Source: an uncultured Bacilli bacterium (GTDB taxonomy: Bacteria; Bacillota_I; Bacilli_A; RF39; UBA660). Taken from it: 45,390 bases of DNA. Both the position numbers and the translations under genes were made by a program. Shown piece after piece: positions 3,172-45,390 of this stretch (positions are counted from its first letter, which is position 1; each line of letters begins with the position of its first letter). A model generated the notes under the pieces. The model was not told where the DNA came from. It ran no database searches and worked only from the letters and a program-made list of their open reading frames with translations. The stretch lies in NCBI GenBank assembly GCA_947632265.1, contig CANROP010000001.1, positions 1 to 45,390 on the forward strand, written 5' to 3'.

Positions 3172-3279
3172 AGGTAATTAAGTAGGACTTCCATCTCCTA
3201 CATATCTACTTTCAGTAAAAATACTTACTCAAACCTTTACAGGTGTGACGGACGAAGATTCTCCGCCTTTTAATTACCC
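3172..3279 (-). promoter_or_regulatory. Multi-stem structured RNA element (riboswitch-like or small ncRNA), class unknown
   Basis: A 9-bp closing helix (3173-3181 with 3270-3278) encloses at least three hairpins. On the minus strand these are ACCU-GUAA-AGGU (a GNRA loop, 3233-3244), AGUAA/UUACU, and GUAGGA/UCCUAC. The terminator at 3133-3170 follows immediately. Confidence 0.35.
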
Positions 3280-5905: not shown

Positions 5906-5997
5906 AACTACTCGCCTCCATTTCATAACTACCTAAATAGATATGAAAATATTTTTTATAAATAAATCTAAAATTCAAAAATAATTTCATTATCAAA

Positions 5998-6120
5998 ATG
6001 TCGTCAATGTCGCCAATAATGTCGCCAATAATGTCGCCAAAATGTCGTCAATGTCGCCAATAAATGTCGTCAATAATGTCGCCAATAAATGTCGTCAATA
6101 ATGTCGCCAATGTCGCCAAT
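5998..6120. repeat. Array of 11 direct copies of TGTCG(C/T)CAA with A/T spacers of 0-4 nt
   Basis: Read directly: atgtcgtcaa tgtcgccaa taa tgtcgccaa taa tgtcgccaa aa tgtcgtcaa tgtcgccaa taaa tgtcgtcaa taa tgtcgccaa taaa tgtcgtcaa taa tgtcgccaa tgtcgccaa. Unit spacing is 9-13 nt. The array lies between the amidotransferase stop (6136) and the parC start (5905). Confidence 0.9.
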
Positions 6121-6135
6121 AAATCAAAAATTATA

Positions 6136-6864
6136 TTAATTAATTTTAACTTCTTGCATATTTTCAATTTTAAATTTTTTAGCTGCATTAATAAATTCTA
6201 ATATTAATTTATAATTTAATTCATCTAAAGTTAGTTCAGGATGCCACTGAACACCTATTACAAATTTTTTATTAGGCATTTCAACTGCTTCTATATATCC
6301 ATCTATACTAGTCGCACTAACTTTTAAATTTTTTACTTTTTCTATATGATAATTATGTATACTATTAACCATCATTTCTTCTTTATTAAGTATATTATAT
6401 AATTTTGAATTATTATTAATCATAACTTTATGTACTTCTTTAATATCAGGCATAAAATGATTAATTGAAGAATCATTTTTTATAGGAGTATCTTTATGTT
6501 CTAAAGTAGAATTATCACTATTACACATGACCTGCATACCCATACATATTCCAAGTACTGGAATATCTTTTTCAAGTGCGAAATTGTATGCTAGAGAATC
6601 AAATTCAAATTGCCTATTACCTCCTGGCATTAATAATCCATCGCACATGTCTAATTGCTCATACAAAAATTTTTTTGCTTCACTATCCATAGGTCCAATA
6701 TCTTTACCACTTTTTATATAATCTACATTTTGTGGTGGAATTATAAAATATGGATAACAATCATTTTCTATTATTATTTTTCTTACTAAATCACTTATAT
6801 AAAATCTAAGTTTATCATCGACTAAAATAGTTCTTGGCATAACTCCTATAATAGTTTTGTGCAT
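6136..6864 (-). CDS. Class I glutamine amidotransferase / gamma-glutamyl-GABA hydrolase-like (peptidase C26 family) protein
   Basis: The nucleophile elbow is VLGICMGMQ and the His motif is GVQWHPE. Length is about 240 aa. Confidence 0.8.
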   Translation of the reverse strand: MHKTIIGVMPRTILVDDKLRFYISDLVRKIIIENDCYPYFIIPPQNVDYIKSGKDIGPMDSEAKKFLYEQLDMCDGLLMPGGNRQFEFDSLAYNFALEKDIPVLGICMGMQVMCNSDNSTLEHKDTPIKNDSSINHFMPDIKEVHKVMINNNSKLYNILNKEEMMVNSIHNYHIEKVKNLKVSATSIDGYIEAVEMPNKKFVIGVQWHPELTLDELNYKLILEFINAAKKFKIENMQEVKIN

Positions 6865-6873
6865 AATTCACCT

Positions 6874-8784
6874 CTAACTTATTTTATAATTATCTTCAAG
6901 TGAGAACTCTACATTTTCTTCTATCCAATCTTTTCTAGGATCAACTTTATCTCCCATAAGGACACTAACTCTTTTTTCAGCAAGAGCTGCATCTGTTATA
7001 TTTACTTTAATTAAACTTCTCGTTTTAGGATCCATAGTAGTTTCCCATAATTGATTCGCATCCATCTCTCCTAAACCTTTATATCTTTGTGTTTTAGTTT
7101 GTTTACCTTTAAACTTTTCAAGTAGATTTTTTCTATCTTCTTCTGTCCATGCATAATAGCCTTCCTTACCACATTCTATTTTATAAAGTGGTGGCATCGC
7201 TATATAAAGGTGTCCCTGTTCTATTAAAGGTTTCATATATCTATAGAAAAATGTTAAAAGTAATATCTGAATATGTGATCCATCTACATCAGCATCTGTC
7301 ATAATTATTACTTTATCATAATTACTTTCACTTACATCAAAACTAGAGCCTACTCCTGCTCCTATCGCATATATCATAGTATTTATTTCTTCATTTTTAT
7401 ATGCTTCATCTAAAGAAGCTTTTTCTGTATTTAAAACTTTACCTCTTAATGGTAGTATTGCTTGATATTTACGATCCCTACCAGTTTTCGCACTTCCACC
7501 AGCAGAATCTCCCTCTACTAAGAATAGTTCATTTATTTTAGGATTTTTACTTTGAGCTGGTGTTAATTTACCACTAATAGTTCTTTCATTTTTATCTTTT
7601 TTCTTACCATTTCTTGCTTCATCTCTCGCTTTTCTCGCTGCTTCACGTGCATTACGACTTTTTAATATTTTATCTAGTATTGTAGTTGCGATTGCTTTAT
7701 TCTCTTCTAAGAAGAATTGTAATTTTTCAGATACTATACTATCTACTACAGGACGAGCTATAGGTGTACCTAGTTTACCTTTTGTCTGGCCTTCAAATTG
7801 TAATAATTCTTCTGGTATTTTTAAGCTTATTACAGCAGTTAATCCCTCTCTTGTATCTGGACCTTCTAAATTTTTATCTTTAGCTTTAAGATATCCATTA
7901 TTTCTTGCATACTCATTAAATACACGAGTGAGTGCGGTTTTAAATCCAACCTCATGACTTCCGCCATCACTAGTTTTAACGTTATTTACAAATGATACTA
8001 TATTTTCAGCATAAGAATCTGTATATTGGAATGCTACTTTAACATCTATTTTATCTTTAGAGCCACTTATTACCATAGTTTTATGTAATTCATTTTTATC
8101 TTCGTTTATATATTCTACAAATGCTTTTAATCCATCTTCATAACAAAAAGTTTCATGTTTATTATCTTCTTCATCTGTTACTTCTATAGTAAGTCCTTCT
8201 AGTAAGAAAGCACTCTCCTGCATTCTTTCACATATAGTTGTAAACGAAAAATTAGTAGTTGAAAATATCTCATCATCTGGCATAAATCTTACTTTAGTAC
8301 CAGTTTTACTAGTTTTATCTCTTTTAGTTAATGGTACATCAACTTCTCCACCATTTTTAAATCTAATGAAATATTCATACCCATCTCTTTTAATTGTTAC
8401 TTCCATCCATTTAGATAATGCATTTACTACGGATGCTCCAACGCCATGTAGTCCGCCAGATACAGTATAACCACTTGATTCGAATTTACCTCCTGCATGA
8501 AGAACTGTATAAATTACTTCTGGAGTAGTTCTTCCACTTGAATGCATACCAACAGGAACTCCACGTCCTTCATCTTCGACACTTATACTGTGATCTTTAT
8601 GAATTATTATTTTTATTTTATTACCAAAGCCATTGATAACCTCATCTATACTATTATCAACGATTTCCCATACTAAATGATGAAGTCCTCTTTTATCAGT
8701 TGAACCAATATACATTCCTGGTCTTTTTCTAACTGCTTCAAGTCCTTCTAATATTTTTATTGAGCTTTCATCATACTTTACCAT
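6874..8784 (-). CDS. parE: DNA topoisomerase IV subunit B
   Basis: LEGLEAVRKRPGMYIGST is the GHKL ATPase N-terminus. The TOPRIM motifs EGDSAGG and IMTDADVDGSHI are present. It is called ParE rather than GyrB because its partner is ParC-type. Confidence 0.85.
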   Translation of the reverse strand: MVKYDESSIKILEGLEAVRKRPGMYIGSTDKRGLHHLVWEIVDNSIDEVINGFGNKIKIIIHKDHSISVEDEGRGVPVGMHSSGRTTPEVIYTVLHAGGKFESSGYTVSGGLHGVGASVVNALSKWMEVTIKRDGYEYFIRFKNGGEVDVPLTKRDKTSKTGTKVRFMPDDEIFSTTNFSFTTICERMQESAFLLEGLTIEVTDEEDNKHETFCYEDGLKAFVEYINEDKNELHKTMVISGSKDKIDVKVAFQYTDSYAENIVSFVNNVKTSDGGSHEVGFKTALTRVFNEYARNNGYLKAKDKNLEGPDTREGLTAVISLKIPEELLQFEGQTKGKLGTPIARPVVDSIVSEKLQFFLEENKAIATTILDKILKSRNAREAARKARDEARNGKKKDKNERTISGKLTPAQSKNPKINELFLVEGDSAGGSAKTGRDRKYQAILPLRGKVLNTEKASLDEAYKNEEINTMIYAIGAGVGSSFDVSESNYDKVIIMTDADVDGSHIQILLLTFFYRYMKPLIEQGHLYIAMPPLYKIECGKEGYYAWTEEDRKNLLEKFKGKQTKTQRYKGLGEMDANQLWETTMDPKTRSLIKVNITDAALAEKRVSVLMGDKVDPRKDWIEENVEFSLEDNYKIS

Positions 8785-9026
8785 ATCTATTCACCTAACA
8801 CATTATAGCATACTTTTAAAATCAAAGTCAAAGAAAAAATGTTTTATTGTGTTGTTAATATTAATATTTTAAAAATATATATTTAAAATATTAATTAAAA
8901 GTATGAAAAAATTTTAAAAATACTAAATTTAAAAAATGAATAGTAAAAAATGCAGAAATTAAAAAAAATGTACACAGAAATTTAAATTCTGTATTTTTTT
9001 GTGTTCAAAACGTTAAAAATGCATCT

Positions 9027-9078: not shown

Positions 9079-9942
9079 ATGGAAAATCTTAAATTTATAC
9101 CGATAAGGTACGATAAAATGTATAAAAAAATATTTATTATTGGAAAAGATAAACGTATACCTAGTCTTTTAATAAAAGAAACATCTGAAGTAGATAGTGA
9201 AATAGAAACATTTATATATCCAGAGATAATAAATTTTCCATATAAAGAAAAAAGCACTATAGTAGACTTGATAGCTAGATTAGAAAACAAAACAATAATT
9301 GGTATAGAATTAAATACAGTTGTAAACAATATGATAATGGAAAGAAATTTCTTCTATATGAACAAAATTGCAGTTGTTTCATCAGATCAAGCAAAAAACT
9401 ATGATGATTTTGAGAAACAAATTCAAGTTAATTTGAATTTTGAAGGTGAGTTTATAGATCCTATAGATCACATAAACTTAATAATAAGAGGAACAGATAA
9501 AATATATCTGGATTCAATGGAAATAATACGTATAAATATTCCATATTTTGTTAAACTGTGTTACAATAAAGATGTAAGCGAATTAAGCATAAAAGAAAGA
9601 TTATTAGGAATGATAGGGTCAGAAGATATAGAATTATCAAAGAAGCTTGCGAAAGGAGATGAAATTTTAGAAATGATACTAAAAAAACAATTAAGATATA
9701 GTCAAGGTAAAAGGTTGGGATTACTTTATGATAAAGATGAGTTAATAAAAGCATCATACGAGAAATCAATGAAAGAAAGGTACGAAAAAGGAAAACTTGA
9801 AGGAAAACTTGAGGGAAAACTTGAGGGAAAAAAAGAAGGAATAAAATCTACTGTAAAAAATTTACTTAAAAAGAATATAGATATAAACATTATATCAGAA
9901 GCTACAGGACTATCAATTAGTGAAATAAATGAGTTAAGATAA
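9079..9942 (+). CDS. Rpn-family / PD-(D/E)XK nuclease-like (transposase_31-like) protein
   Basis: The N-terminal D..FKKIF-like segment, the core VDLIARLENKTIIGIELN (D...E.x pattern) and the C-terminal tail ATGLSISEINEL are typical of this family. It carries an internal (GKLE)x3 repeat. Confidence 0.5.
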   Translation: MENLKFIPIRYDKMYKKIFIIGKDKRIPSLLIKETSEVDSEIETFIYPEIINFPYKEKSTIVDLIARLENKTIIGIELNTVVNNMIMERNFFYMNKIAVVSSDQAKNYDDFEKQIQVNLNFEGEFIDPIDHINLIIRGTDKIYLDSMEIIRINIPYFVKLCYNKDVSELSIKERLLGMIGSEDIELSKKLAKGDEILEMILKKQLRYSQGKRLGLLYDKDELIKASYEKSMKERYEKGKLEGKLEGKLEGKKEGIKSTVKNLLKKNIDINIISEATGLSISEINELR

Positions 9943-11576: not shown

Positions 11577-12083
11577 CTATCTTATATAATCAAGTAATCC
11601 TGAATCAATACTAGAATCTTGATTATTTTCTTCAACATCTGTTTCATCAAGTGTATTTTTATCATTTGGATCTTCTTTAATACTATCATTATTTTTATTT
11701 ACATTTTGCTCATTTTGACTTATTATTTCATCTTTTTTATTTAATAAACCTAATACAAAAAATACTGATAAAATAATAACTATTAAATATAATACTAGAA
11801 CAATTATATATTCCTTTTTAATTTTCTTTTCTTTTTCTACAAAGTCATCTGCCATATCATTATTTGTTTCGTCTTTTTTTAAATCTTCTAATACATCATC
11901 TTCTTTAGATGTTTCATCTACTAATTTTTTAGTATCTTCAACTTCATTATTATCACTAGTTTCTTCTTCATTTATTTCTTCTAATTCATTAGTTGTGTTA
12001 AGTGTTTCATCTACTAGTTCTTCACTATTTTCAACTTCATTATTATCACTAGTTTCTTCTTTTATTAATTCTTCATCATTCAT
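11577..12083 (-). CDS. Highly acidic repeat protein with a single transmembrane helix
   Basis: The start is set at MNDEELIKEE (ATG 12081-12083, RBS AGGTGA), because the longer track start at 12155 would overlap a terminator hairpin. A 30-nt exact internal repeat (11937-11966 = 12031-12060) encodes ETSDNNEVE twice. The TM segment is IIVLVLYLIVIILSVFFVLGLL. Confidence 0.5.
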   Translation of the reverse strand: MNDEELIKEETSDNNEVENSEELVDETLNTTNELEEINEEETSDNNEVEDTKKLVDETSKEDDVLEDLKKDETNNDMADDFVEKEKKIKKEYIIVLVLYLIVIILSVFFVLGLLNKKDEIISQNEQNVNKNNDSIKEDPNDKNTLDETDVEENNQDSSIDSGLLDYIR

Positions 12084-12125: not shown

Positions 12126-12152
12126 AAACAAAAAAAGGCAATTTGCCTTTCT
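12126..12152 (-). terminator. Rho-independent terminator closing the large ncRNA candidate
   Basis: The minus strand reads AAAGGC-AAAUU-GCCUUU followed by UUUUG (seven U in a row counting the stem), i.e. aaaggcaaattgcctttttttg. Confidence 0.5.
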
Positions 12153-12742
12153 CACACTTCATTATGGCGTTAATACAGTTAACTTTACGTCATAGGTCAA
12201 GTCGGATTTCCCTAAAACTTACTTACCGTTACCAATAAGCGGTTCCCCTTTAAAAGTTTCAGTATATTGTCGCCAAATACACTACTTGATTGCCACTTAG
12301 TACGCACTGCAATCCCATATTAACAACACTCTAGGAGATTTCCTCACCACTATTTACTATTAATTCTTTTTTGCAAATAATATTTCAAATTGCACTCCTC
12401 TAGGTTCTAGCTAAAAACTTATAGAAATGTTTATTCAATTATCCCAATTATTCACTCAAGACAAGCTACGCTACCCGCAACTTTCATCGCTTGGTAGGTT
12501 TAATCTCACTTCGTATTCAGTCCGTCAGTAAATTACGTATAGGCTAAACACAATAGTAAGTCTCCACGAATGGTGGGTCATTTGCATATGCCATTATGGA
12601 TGCCCAACACTCTCATTTCCAGCACTCACCCCAATCTGGGCGAAAGAAGCAAGCACCAAAAGTTTCACAGATATGCTCTTTAGCGGATTTTTAGCCCCGC
12701 CTTCATAATAAATATAATGACTAGAATAATGTGCCATCAACG
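12126..12742 (-). ncRNA. Candidate large structured non-coding RNA (about 615 nt), class unknown
   Basis: The ORF track lists no ORF (shortest listed is 62 aa) in any frame. G+C is much higher than in the flanks. A consensus promoter lies immediately upstream and a terminator at the 3' end. There are several stable hairpins, including a GAAA-capped one (12471-12497). See findings. Confidence 0.6.
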
Positions 12743-12748
12743 ATTACC

Positions 12749-12777
12749 ATTATAGCAAATTTACACTTTTTTGTCAA
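12749..12777 (-). promoter_or_regulatory. Exact consensus sigma-A promoter
   Basis: On the minus strand TTGACA (12772-12777), a 17-nt spacer, then TATAAT (12749-12754). Confidence 0.7.
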
Positions 12778-42333: not shown

Positions 42334-44478
42334 CTAATCACAATTTACTCTTATATAGTTTACTCCTATATCAAAATAGTTTTCTTTTAAATTAATTTTT
42401 TTATAATTATATATATACATAAAATTATCTTTTATTTTAATATTGTATTTATTTTTAAATCTATCTATAAGTTCTCCATAATTTTTATTATATTTTTTTA
42501 ATAAATTATATTTACAAACCATTACTTCAGGATATCCTTCTATAATTACTTCTACATTTGGTAATTTTTTATATCTATTTATATAACTATCTATTAATGT
42601 TTTTACTTGTTTATAAGATAGTTCATATGATAAAGTTATTTTATTAACTCCTATAGAATGAAGGTAAGCAACACTATATGAATTAGTTACATTTAATGAA
42701 AAATCTGTATCTACATTTTTATATTTTTTTATACTACCTAAATCACTTACTAATAATTTAGAGTGATAATTAGGTAAATGTTCATTTATTCTATTTAATT
42801 TTAATATACATTTTTTATCATTTATTTTATCTTTTTCTTCCATACTATCAATATAAATTATATCACATGTATCTTTTATTTTTTCATATTCTTCTAAAGT
42901 ATGAATAAGAATACTTTTACATTTTACTTTTTTATAATTTTTTAATTCTATATAATAATTACTTTTTTTATATTCTTTTATTTCTAATCTTTTCTTAGTT
43001 AATTTATCTATTGCTTCTCTTCTTAATTTATTTATTATACTAATAGGTATAAAAATATTAGAATCACTAATAATATCTAAACTTTCAAATTCATATATTG
43101 TATCTCCTAGTCTTTTTAATTTTTCTTCTATCATATCTTTTGTAGTTTCAATACTTTTAGATTTTTCTACATTTACATCACTTATAACTTCTATAGTATT
43201 TATATTATCAGTTATAGATAGTTTTATAGGACTGTTTAATTTTAATATACAAGTTCCTTTTATATATACTTTTCTTTCTTTTTTAATATTATTTTCTATC
43301 TCTTTCATTAAGTAATAATCAGTTGTTTTTACTACTTTATCATTTTTATTTATTTTATCTTTTATAGGTACTCTAATAATATCTCCTATATTTCCACTTT
43401 TTACACTAATACCATTTTTATACATAATTGTAACAATAGTACCTGTATCATTACTTCCTATAATTCTAATTCCATCATTTATGTTTAAAGGACTAGATAG
43501 TTTTATTGTTGCTTTATTATTTTTATAATCTATTACCTCTCCTATATTAATACCTATATGATTTGGTCTAAATGTATTTGTATATGAATCATTATCTTCA
43601 TTAAATATAAATCCTTTAGTAAATTCTCTATTAAATACTTTTTTTAAATTTATTATATCTATATCTGTTATATTTGTTTTACCATATTTTTTATAATTAT
43701 CTATAGCTTTCCTATATATACTAGTAACTAAATAAACATATTCAGGTCTTTTCATTCTACCTTCTATTTTTAAACTTTCAACATTACTATCTATTAATTC
43801 TTTTATATAATCTAAGGTATTTAAATCTTTAGTACTAAGTAAATATTTATTATCTTCTACTATTTTTTCATCTATTTTTAAACTATAAGGTTGCCTGCAA
43901 CACTGTGCACATGTTCCTCTATTACCACTTCTACCACCTATAAAATAACTCATTAAACATTCACCTGAATAACTCATACAAAGTGCGCCATGTATAAATA
44001 CTTCAAGTTCTATATTTGTATCTTTTTTTATTTCTTTTATTAAATCAATACTTACTTCTCTTGAAAGTACTACTCTTTTTACTCCTAATTCTTCAAGTAA
44101 TTTTACACCTTCTTTATTATGTATATTTAACTGTGTTGATGCATGTATTTCTAAATTTGGATATGTTTTTCTAACTAAATCAATCATACCTATATCTTGC
44201 ATTATTAAAGCATCTACACCATTTTTATGTAAAAAATCTATATAATCTAAAAATCTATCTACTTCAACATCATATATAAGAGTATTTACAGTTACATAAA
44301 TTTTTACTCCATATAAATGGCATATATTAATGGCTTTTATTAATTCTTCACGAGTAAAATTTCCTGCAAAACTTCTCGCACCAAAATTTTTACCAGCTAG
44401 ATAAACTGCATCACACCCTGCATTTATTGCAACATATAAACATTCCATATTTCCTACTGGAGAAAGTAATTCAGGCAT
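42334..44478 (-). CDS. Peptidase U32 family protein (long form)
   Basis: The N-terminus is PELLSPVGNMECLYVAINAGCDAVYLAGKNFGAR. The motifs IHASTQ and a cysteine-rich stretch (CMSYSGEC, later CAQCC) are present. Confidence 0.85.
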   Translation of the reverse strand: MPELLSPVGNMECLYVAINAGCDAVYLAGKNFGARSFAGNFTREELIKAINICHLYGVKIYVTVNTLIYDVEVDRFLDYIDFLHKNGVDALIMQDIGMIDLVRKTYPNLEIHASTQLNIHNKEGVKLLEELGVKRVVLSREVSIDLIKEIKKDTNIELEVFIHGALCMSYSGECLMSYFIGGRSGNRGTCAQCCRQPYSLKIDEKIVEDNKYLLSTKDLNTLDYIKELIDSNVESLKIEGRMKRPEYVYLVTSIYRKAIDNYKKYGKTNITDIDIINLKKVFNREFTKGFIFNEDNDSYTNTFRPNHIGINIGEVIDYKNNKATIKLSSPLNINDGIRIIGSNDTGTIVTIMYKNGISVKSGNIGDIIRVPIKDKINKNDKVVKTTDYYLMKEIENNIKKERKVYIKGTCILKLNSPIKLSITDNINTIEVISDVNVEKSKSIETTKDMIEEKLKRLGDTIYEFESLDIISDSNIFIPISIINKLRREAIDKLTKKRLEIKEYKKSNYYIELKNYKKVKCKSILIHTLEEYEKIKDTCDIIYIDSMEEKDKINDKKCILKLNRINEHLPNYHSKLLVSDLGSIKKYKNVDTDFSLNVTNSYSVAYLHSIGVNKITLSYELSYKQVKTLIDSYINRYKKLPNVEVIIEGYPEVMVCKYNLLKKYNKNYGELIDRFKNKYNIKIKDNFMYIYNYKKINLKENYFDIGVNYIRVNCD

Positions 44479-44573: not shown

Positions 44574-44641
44574 AATTAAATTATATATTTTAAAGATACA
44601 AATTCAGACAGGCTCCCAGAGTAAACCCTGGACGCCTGCGG

Positions 44642-44675
44642 TATCCTGCTCACAAAAAAGAGTGTGAGCAGGATA
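44642..44675. repeat. 13-bp perfect inverted repeat (GC-rich hairpin) in the 3' untranslated region
   Basis: tatcctgctcaca (44642-44654) pairs with tgtgagcaggata (44663-44675) around an 8-nt loop. No U-tract follows on either strand. Confidence 0.7.
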
Positions 44676-44748
44676 ATCCATCCCACTTTATTTGTGGTCG
44701 TTTTGTATTACAGGCCCTCTTGTAGTACTTGCGTTCAGAGGGAAGCTG

Positions 44749-45390
44749 CTACGCAGCGGCAAGCACAACGCGGAACCCGTAGGTACCGTAACTAGTGCCA
44801 TGGGCCAAGTGAAGTAGAACACTCCCGCAGCAGCCACACCGTAGGAGTTGCCACCGCGTTCGAACCAAGGAAGGAAGAACTAACGAAATCTGCATAATCG
44901 CTATACCAGCCACTCGTTTCGCTTAAGGCATGTCCGTAACATACTCCTCCACTACATGCTGTTGTTGCAGTTGTTGTTGTATATTTATCGTAATATTTTA
45001 AGTCTGGCATTGCAGAGAAACCATCATACTTTATTGTGTCATTATAGTTTCCCATTACATATTCCCAGGCTCCTCCACTCATGTCATATACTCCTGTAAT
45101 ATTTCCTGTTGTACTTGCTCCTCCTCCACATTGTCCTTGACCTGAGCCTCTATCATCTATTTCATCATATTTACATGTTCCAGCACTGTTCGAACTTGCA
45201 CTCGGTGTTCCTCCACTTCGTCCTGTATAAAAATCACTTGAATTATTTATATATACTTCTTTATTTGTTCCTGTATAACCTTGATTACCATATTTACCAT
45301 ATTTACTTTGGGATAAATATGCGACTGCTCCCCACTCACTATTCTTTGCCATATGACTATCATAGCCTGTTACTTTTAATTGTTGGGCTG
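44749..45390 (-). pseudogene. 3' part of a C-type-lectin/FGE-fold variable protein (DGR target type); open to the right window edge and apparently frameshifted in its last ~120 nt
   Basis: The motif ITGVYDMSGGAWEYVMG is FGE/CLec-like. The frame stays open upstream of the first Met to position 45390 (AQQLKVTGYDSH MAKN...). The canonical C-terminal motifs are split over three frames: track frame ...DFVSSS, second frame PWFERGGNSYGVAAAGVFYFT, third frame HGTSYGTYGFRVVLAAA ending at TAG 44749-44751. Confidence 0.55.
44752..44870 (-). other. Putative DGR variable region (VR)
   Basis: The stretch is GC-rich and adenine-poor on the coding strand. I count about 14 A in about 119 nt, in a genome whose coding strands are A-rich. 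It encodes the RGG...AGVF...GFRVVL scaffold typical of DGR VRs. A hairpin (44715-44720 with 44737-44742) follows 7 nt after the stop. Confidence 0.5.

Follow-up and report, generated by a model that had tools for sequence, protein, structure and literature searches.

A probable DGR variable region split over three reading frames at the 3' end of a remote target gene in an uncultured gut Bacilli bacterium

The right end of a 45,390-bp contig from an uncultured Bacilli bacterium raises the question of how a gene end that looks like the variable region (VR) of a DGR target came to be broken over three reading frames, and what could have written it on a contig that holds no DGR cassette. The window analysed here is the entire contig, and nothing lies past its right edge in that assembly. 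The target gene (44792..45390, minus strand) is truncated at its 5' end by the contig end and was identified by three-frame translation and by the 1606 homologs of its frame-corrected protein. As read, the gene frame on the minus strand runs through ...SGWYSDYADFVSSS (also read as ...CYGHALSETSGWYSDYADFVSSS) and continues into an unrelated, out-of-frame tail of 26 residues, FLGSNAVATPTVWLLRECSTSLGPWH, which ends at a premature TAG at 44792-44794. The second frame features PWFERGGNSYGVAAAGVFYFT from CCT 44870-44868 and reads (FFL)PWFERGGNSYGVAAAGVFYFTW..., and the third frame features HGTSYGTYGFRVVLAAA with its stop TAG at 44749-44751. The three-frame translation reproduced the claim of the first-pass annotation that the PWF-RGG...AGVF...GFRVVL motif is split over three frames. 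After two bases are restored, the VR encodes (S)LPWFERGGNSYGVAAAGVFYFxLAHGTSYGTYGFRVVLAAA followed by TAG, and it ends three codons past the RVVL motif at the extreme 3' end of the ORF.

The GC content of 44749-44875 is 58%, compared with 24.4% for the window, and adenine makes up 11.8% of the coding strand in this segment versus 38.3% in the 515-nt gene body (binomial p = 5e-11). At third codon positions the VR has 44% C and 5% A, and the gene body has 11% C and 44% A. The GC-rich, adenine-poor character of the 3' end had been noted before and holds at these values, however, the GC island is longer than was claimed and extends beyond the stop to ~44596. The A fraction of the window segment (0.118) falls within the range of VRs from related loci (0.10–0.18) and below that of their template repeats (TRs; 0.22–0.31). 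The possibility that the GC island is itself a TR was dropped, since it has the A content of a VR and joins the gene body without a break. VRs in relatives that are linked to a reverse transcriptase (RT) have a GC content of 0.52–0.58, and the VRs of many paralogs in the relatives have a GC content of 0.33–0.40. Because the GC content of the window VR is as extreme as that of the RT-linked VRs, and the many paralogs at the lower values are seen as eroded, the composition suggests that the window VR was written recently.

The relatives of the target gene provide the evidence for its assignment. Gut metagenome assemblies are the source of nearly all of them, and the few with a name are listed as 'Bacilli bacterium'. 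Alignments of 26 and of 121 sequences revealed that the homologs align end to end and that the C-terminus follows the pattern PWxxRGG-x8-AGxF-x-F-x4-G-x6-(S)FRxVL-x3-stop, in which the scaffold residues are near-invariant and the x positions are hypervariable. The conserved body of the family includes HMxKNSEWGAVAYLSQSKYGK..., ASTTGNIxGxYDMSGGAxEYVMG, and CxGHALSETxGWY, and the window protein matches the family spacing only with the two-base repair. With one genome per species scanned, 588 loci that encode the family were found, often with at least five paralogs per genome. They belong to uncultured Bacilli, 'Tenericutes', and Candidatus Onthousia genomes sampled from the guts of rabbits, ruminants, chickens, and mice.

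In seven loci that were fetched, a DGR-type RT ORF with a GNYTSQ...YMDD signature lies downstream of the target on the same strand. Pfam detected RVT_1 in all three RTs that were scanned, and the ORF preceding the RT of locus L027 is bAvd (PF22296, 82 bits). The last ~115–126 nt of the target are repeated between the target and the RT in L026, L027, and L029. A comparison of the VR (8842-8967) with the TR (9108-9233) of L029 showed that 15 of 15 mismatches fall at TR adenines; the corresponding counts are 18 of 19 in L026 and 11 of 12 in L027 (12 of 20 when the comparison is extended into a non-homologous 5' flank). The window target is 45–62% identical to the targets of these three loci, and a tblastn search with the L027 target against the window target gene gave E = 1e-40. 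The TRs of the family are rich in Asn codons, and the x positions of the family scaffold are the Asn codons (AAY) of the TRs in L026, L027, L029, L030, and L054; the variable positions in the window VR feature codons that end in C or T. L006 is the closest RT-linked relative, and it has no TR between its VR and its RT, the contig ending 176 nt past the RT. Many paralogs in the relatives have no RT within 10 kb. The window segment at 44749..44875 (minus strand) shares an identical scaffold with the VRs that have proven TR partners (L026, L027, L029), and it is very probably the DGR-type VR of a remote target. Sequence comparison places the gene in a multi-copy family of surface-type proteins with a C-terminal FGE/CLec-like domain from uncultured, very AT-rich gut Bacilli.

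The fold of the target protein was examined by profile and structure searches. Pfam FGE-sulfatase (PF03781) matched over the ITGVYDMSGGAWEYV motif with 17.2 bits, compared with a cut-off of 23.3 (E = 0.004), and a precomputed PF03781 hit was present for 4 of 120 homologs. A profile search of the PDB returned TaqVP, a Thermus DGR variable protein (5vf4), alone with E = 0.45. An AlphaFold (AF2) model built from 121 sequences has a pLDDT of 74 and a pTM of 0.76; an earlier AF2 model from 26 sequences was unusable, with a pLDDT of 48. The top seven Foldseek matches of the protein are TaqVP and Mtd variants with E = 0.3 and TM values of 0.2–0.43. The target protein probably adopts a CLec/FGE fold.

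Additional features were observed in the cassettes of the relatives. L026:7395-9044, L027:11763-13150, L030:11754-13168, and L054:6777-8470 feature tandem arrays of TRs between the target and bAvd-RT. The arrays consist of 4–5 different Asn-codon-rich TRs with a period of ~310–350 nt, a common 5' end GCGCGGCGGT, and a common 3' end TTCCGCCTCGTGATGAG, and the VR next to an array pairs with a specific one of its TRs, the mismatches being at adenines only. Multi-TR DGRs have been mentioned (PMC6642488), and no description of such tandem TR arrays was found in the literature searched. Each array is headed by an element, here called el1 (L026:~7270-7420, L027:~11640-11790, L030:~11630-11780, L054:~6650-6800), which is A-poor (10–16% A), T-rich, and out-of-frame and carries a VR-type 3' end, CGTGACTA, as well as its own small hairpin. 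The VR of the L030 target is 100% identical to el1 and hence stop-bearing, which could be the result of gene conversion, a 'null cassette', or misassembly.

In these relatives the cassette follows the target. In the window the target is followed, after a gap of 270 nt, by a U32-family peptidase (42334..44478, minus strand), as had been annotated, and then by further housekeeping genes. The peptidase lies outside the element and serves as a synteny anchor to the ortholog L085, an 8.3-kb ENA contig whose U32 gene belongs to the same 90% cluster and which features the order target, U32, DUF6020 as in the window. Because L085 has the same gene order, the arrangement of target then U32 appears to be ancestral for the species group, and with no cassette on the contig this implies a remote target dependent on a cassette that acts in trans. 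Two other members of the U32 cluster, L086 and L087, are on contigs that stop short of the target gene. Exact-protein searches with the U32 peptidase and with a neighbouring 551-aa protein gave no match that would extend the contig. The contigs of the window (45349-45390) and of L085 (L085:1) are independent assemblies and both break inside the target gene, 42 nt apart, which fits an assembly break in a multi-copy gene whose body is repeated among paralogs. Elsewhere, the window features a full-length OLE (ornate large extremophilic) RNA at 12148-12753 (minus strand; Rfam RF01071, 381.5 bits, E = 1e-108) and a skipping-rope RNA motif at 3174-3277 (minus strand; Rfam RF02924, 44.3 bits, gathering score 36.7). 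At 5994-6122, between two minus-strand genes, about ten tandem copies of the 12-nt unit AATGTCGCCAAT are found, and these may be a binding-site array.

The earlier annotation had placed the missing TR, Avd, and RT either beyond the right edge or in trans; the first option falls away, since the contig ends there. Its statement that the window itself holds none of the three was confirmed by a repeat search, which found no TR-like copy of the VR in the window, and by tblastn searches in which three family RTs and one Avd served as queries (best E = 0.3). No TR for the window VR was found among 85 related loci, in which the best DNA match is 70%. The exact patterns ACGGGTTCCGCGTTGTGCTTGC and ATAAAGTGGGATGGATTATCCT had no match in metagenome contigs, and ATAAAGTGGGATGGATTATCCT had none in viral contigs. 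The 3' end of the window VR is TTCCGCGTTGTGCTTGCC, which differs from the shared 3' end of the L026, L027, L029, L030, and L054 VRs (the same motif that ends the array TRs), so a different TR is needed for the window VR. The cognate TR would be ~125 nt long, start near TGGTTCGNNCGCGGTGG, end near GGGTTCCGCGTTGTGCTTGC, contain ~25% A, and feature many AAY codons. The proposal of a DGR-type VR is supported by homology to targets that have adenine-specific VR/TR pairs, and its own TR and RT were not among the loci and contigs searched.

The region after the VR is rich in predicted structure. A small hairpin, GCTGC-GTA-GCAGC, was found at 44745..44757 (minus strand) in both DNA and RNA fold predictions, with the true stop in its loop region. 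L085 keeps this hairpin as GCTGC-ATA-GCAGT, and the relatives feature TAGTCC-GTAA-GGACTA at the same position. Work by Guo et al. from 2011 is said to have described an inverted repeat that forms a hairpin or cruciform right after the VR in DGR targets. The small hairpin is taken as this usual post-VR hairpin, as its position suggests. The GC island runs 150 nt past the stop, and the GC-rich, structured 3' flank at 44596..44742 (minus strand) has a GC content of 48%, the highest among the loci compared, and a fold z of -4.7 as DNA and as RNA. Fold predictions for the minus strand place a CCCTCT...AGAGGG hairpin at 44715-44742, a 13-bp hairpin with the loop CTCTTTTT at 44642-44675 that is part of a branched domain (44596-44708), and another hairpin at 44608-44639; a box, AAATAAAGTGGGATGG, lies within the flank at 44678-44693. 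The flank is 80% identical to that of L085 versus 75% for the gene body.

A GC-stem hairpin with the CTCTTTTT loop is also found 30–110 nt past the VR in L011, L026, L027, L029, L030, and L054, with compensatory changes in the stem. The coordinates of this hairpin are L011:2918-2950, L026:6879-6908, L027:10716-10745, L029:9013-9050, L030:10711-10740, and L054:5756-5786, in addition to the hairpin of the window; the loop follows C(C)TCTTTTT(T), the stems covary, and there is no T-tract after them. The flank hairpins were considered as plain terminators and this was dropped, as a scan called no intrinsic terminator. No consensus structure common to the 3' flanks of the window, L085, and two L005 paralogs was found, so the extended fold is supported for the window and L085 only. 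Rfam searches of the 3' flank returned noise matches well below gathering scores.

The two frameshifts were located by comparison with L085. The first-pass annotation had proposed that two single-base deletions would restore one continuous protein; the direction is the reverse, and insertions are needed at 44874|44873 and 44811|44810. The addition of one base per site restores ...DFVSSSLPWFERGGNSYGVAAAGVFYFNLAHGTSYGTYGFRVVLAAA*, and the removal of one base per site does not. At site 1 (44873..44874, minus strand), one base is missing from the window sequence TCTTC-CTTCCTTGG compared with TCGTCGCGCCCTTGG in L085. The exact position is ambiguous (~44868-44880), and the site is at the predicted 5' boundary of the VR, next to a codon that reads AAC in the L029 TR (GAG AAC CCG TGG). 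At site 2 (44810..44811, minus strand), the window has TTC -AC TTG and L085 has TTC AAC TTC. The base lost at site 2 is an A of an AAY-type codon, and the family spacing GVFxFxxxxG demands that it be restored. Ortholog alignment also revealed an in-frame 3-nt length difference at 44845..44847 (minus strand), where the window has an extra codon compared with the L085 VR. The L085 VR is uninterrupted (...FVGSSRPWFVRGGHYSTSNAGVFRFNFSSGNVYDANSFRVVLSAA*), so the frameshifts are specific to the window sequence. The two -1 shifts that had been reported are real features of that sequence and are absent from the syntenic ortholog. The VRs of the window and L085 are 68% identical and the genes 75% identical, with the VR differences evenly spread over codon positions.

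The frame through the VR is not intact in the window sequence, and the two deletions remove the entire VR scaffold from the encoded protein. Within the family, 64 of the 66 VRs inspected are in frame, the window and L030 being the only two out of frame. Programmed -1 ribosomal frameshifting was considered and dropped, because neither site has a slippery heptamer and because of this family count. ORFs of at least 120 aa cover 87.7% of the window, and 39,120 nt of ORFs are unbroken and contain 211 A/T runs of at least 6 and 115 G/C runs of at least 3, which argues against a general indel error. Both deletions fall within 127 nt of a 642-nt gene fragment, for which the chance is ~0.04 if they were randomly placed. 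L054 has a 3-nt VR deletion adjoining AAT AAC. Wu et al. 2018 reported that the TR and VR differ in length in 7% of DGRs, that the indels shift the frame in 11 of 25 length-differing DGRs, and that 74% of the indels lie beside AAC, and they proposed RT slippage as the source (PMC5758913). A different kind of break is seen at L005:8599-10432, where a family member is split into overlapping ORFs of 471 aa and 143 aa by a frameshift outside the VR; this locus has a second paralog 9 kb upstream, and its first ~95 nt past the stop resemble those of the window.

The leading explanation, with about an even chance, is that the deletions are real, that they come from error-prone retrohoming, and that they have produced a null allele that a later event could overwrite. 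Under the proposed mechanism, a TR-Avd-RT cassette elsewhere in the genome would transcribe the TR, the RT would copy it into cDNA with errors at adenines, and the cDNA would replace the last ~125 nt of the target gene, the hairpin at the stop codon helping to mark the 3' junction. The deletions would arise during mutagenic retrohoming by RT slippage or by imprecise junction formation next to AAY codons. The window copy would then be a non-productive allele that is currently 'off' and that later retrohoming could overwrite. A DGR origin is plausible from the positions of the deletions, since site 2 removes the A of an AAC-type codon and site 1 abuts the AAC codon of the L029 TR. Several points speak against retrohoming. 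The case for DGR activity here is built on composition and homology, and the placement of the sites beside AAC codons depends on an ortholog with the VR identity given above and on TRs from other genomes. Both sites fall within short C/G or TTCC repeats, a setting in which consensus errors are also seen, and two uncompensated shifts in one VR would be unusual even for DGRs.

A possible, though less probable, explanation is that the VR is genuine and actively diversifying and that the two bases went missing through assembly or consensus error in a sample with many VR variants, the true alleles being in frame. One base would have been lost at each of two short C/G runs as the consensus or graph path passed through these variants. 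The errors are limited to the single segment that is expected to be heterogeneous, both sites lie in short repeats (TTCCTTCC and GGCCC), and the paired contig breaks in the window and L085 suggest that assemblers struggle in this gene. Split genes are also found in other low-coverage contigs of the species (DUF6020 in L085 and U32 in L087). However, DGR variants are equal-length substitutions, so chimeric paths through shared k-mers should keep the length, and the 211 A/T homopolymers elsewhere in the window, with no ORF broken, speak against an indel-prone platform. Frameshifting VR indels have also been documented independently in finished genomes (PMC5758913).

It is improbable that ordinary mutation is eroding an orphan target here, in which case the DGR would have been lost or become blind to the target and two replication-slippage deletions would have gone without repair. 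The contig carries no cassette, the low-GC VRs of many paralogs in the relatives resemble former VRs that are no longer refreshed, and isolates of Treponema denticola retain targets after loss of the RT and TR, some of them truncated and 'suspicious' (PMC4891356). However, a VR this rich in GC and poor in A, as extreme as the RT-linked VRs in a 24%-GC genome, leaves little time for erosion. The 515 nt of the gene outside the VR are free of indels and both fall in the VR, a distribution with the low chance probability stated above, and conservation is higher in the 3' flank than in the gene body.

A more speculative extension of the retrohoming explanation, which we regard as quite unlikely, is that frame disruption written by the DGR is not an accident in this lineage and that it is a reversible off-state for individual paralogs, with the conserved flank hairpin acting as an address. 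The A-poor, stop-containing el1 precedes 4–5 TRs that have the same homing ends, and in L030 it would have replaced the VR base for base. If this were true, one trans-acting cassette would switch a remote target between a null state and many functional states, and the flank with its conserved-loop hairpin would be the address label for locating remote copies. Finally, it is scarcely credible that the segment is no DGR feature at all and represents a conserved, GC-rich, lectin-like C-terminal module (e.g., from a recent horizontal acquisition) that resembles a VR, because although the searches turned up no TR or RT for the window locus and the Pfam and fold-search evidence for a CLec fold stays below threshold, TR partners with adenine-only mismatches and an adjacent bAvd and RT accompany homologs of the same scaffold, the family varies at precisely the positions coded as Asn (AAY) in the relatives' TRs, and the composition is VR-like and not TR-like.

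With this locus, a DGR target family and, by implication, a trans-acting DGR are recorded in a lineage of gut Bacilli that is extremely AT-rich and has hardly been studied. The VR forms a GC island in AT-rich genomes, which is a simple way to spot further targets, and annotation pipelines will wrongly report genes of this kind as truncated. Should reads bear out the deletions, the window copy would be a natural null allele made by a DGR at a remote target, which bears on the cost of targeted hypermutation.

The closest known systems are the DGR cassettes of the relatives from uncultured gut Bacilli, 'Tenericutes', and Ca. Onthousia (L026, L027, L029, L030, L054). They share with the window the target family and VR scaffold, a stop in or next to a small hairpin, a downstream GC-stem hairpin with the same conserved loop, and a GC-rich, A-poor VR in an AT-rich genome. 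In contrast to the window, where the U32 peptidase follows the target and the contig holds no cassette, the TR or TRs, bAvd, and RT of the relatives lie 0.1–3 kb after the target. The VRs of these cassettes are in frame except in L030, whereas the window VR is frameshifted.

The DGR of Treponema denticola serves TvpA and dispersed paralogous targets (Le Coq & Ghosh 2011; Nimkulrat et al. 2016, PMC4891356). It is chromosomal and not phage-borne, and it serves several FGE-type CLec-fold paralogs that are far from the RT, to which the window target is alike. Some T. denticola strains keep targets without an RT or TR, and some of these targets are truncated or over-mutated. The host, however, belongs to an unrelated phylum, and there is no detectable sequence similarity beyond fold-level motifs. 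Additionally, T. denticola has one TR, whereas the relatives of the window locus have arrays of several TRs. By analogy, the window target would work like the dispersed targets of T. denticola.

The Mtd/bAvd/bRT system of Bordetella phage BPP-1 has in common with the window locus a C-terminal VR, variable residues coded by AAY, and a hairpin just after the VR. The relatives also feature an accessory protein of the bAvd family together with an RT, and Mtd structures are, weakly, among the top fold matches. The BPP-1 target is a phage tail-fibre gene whose cassette lies next to it and whose VR is in frame, whereas the window target is a remote member of a cellular multi-copy family with two frameshifts. 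The DGRs surveyed by Wu et al. 2018 (PMC5758913) resemble the window in having VR indels, some of them frame-shifting, mostly beside AAC and ascribed to RT slippage. In those DGRs the TR is known and the indel was measured directly, whereas the indels of the window are inferred from the ortholog and the family scaffold; the window VR also differs in having two uncompensated -1 shifts. Remote DGR targets have been documented as well (PMC5758913; PMC4891356). Remote targets and frameshifting VR indels are thus both already on record, and the window locus belongs to a known kind of system that opens no new question. The more unusual features are the tandem TR arrays and el1 of the relatives and not the window copy itself.
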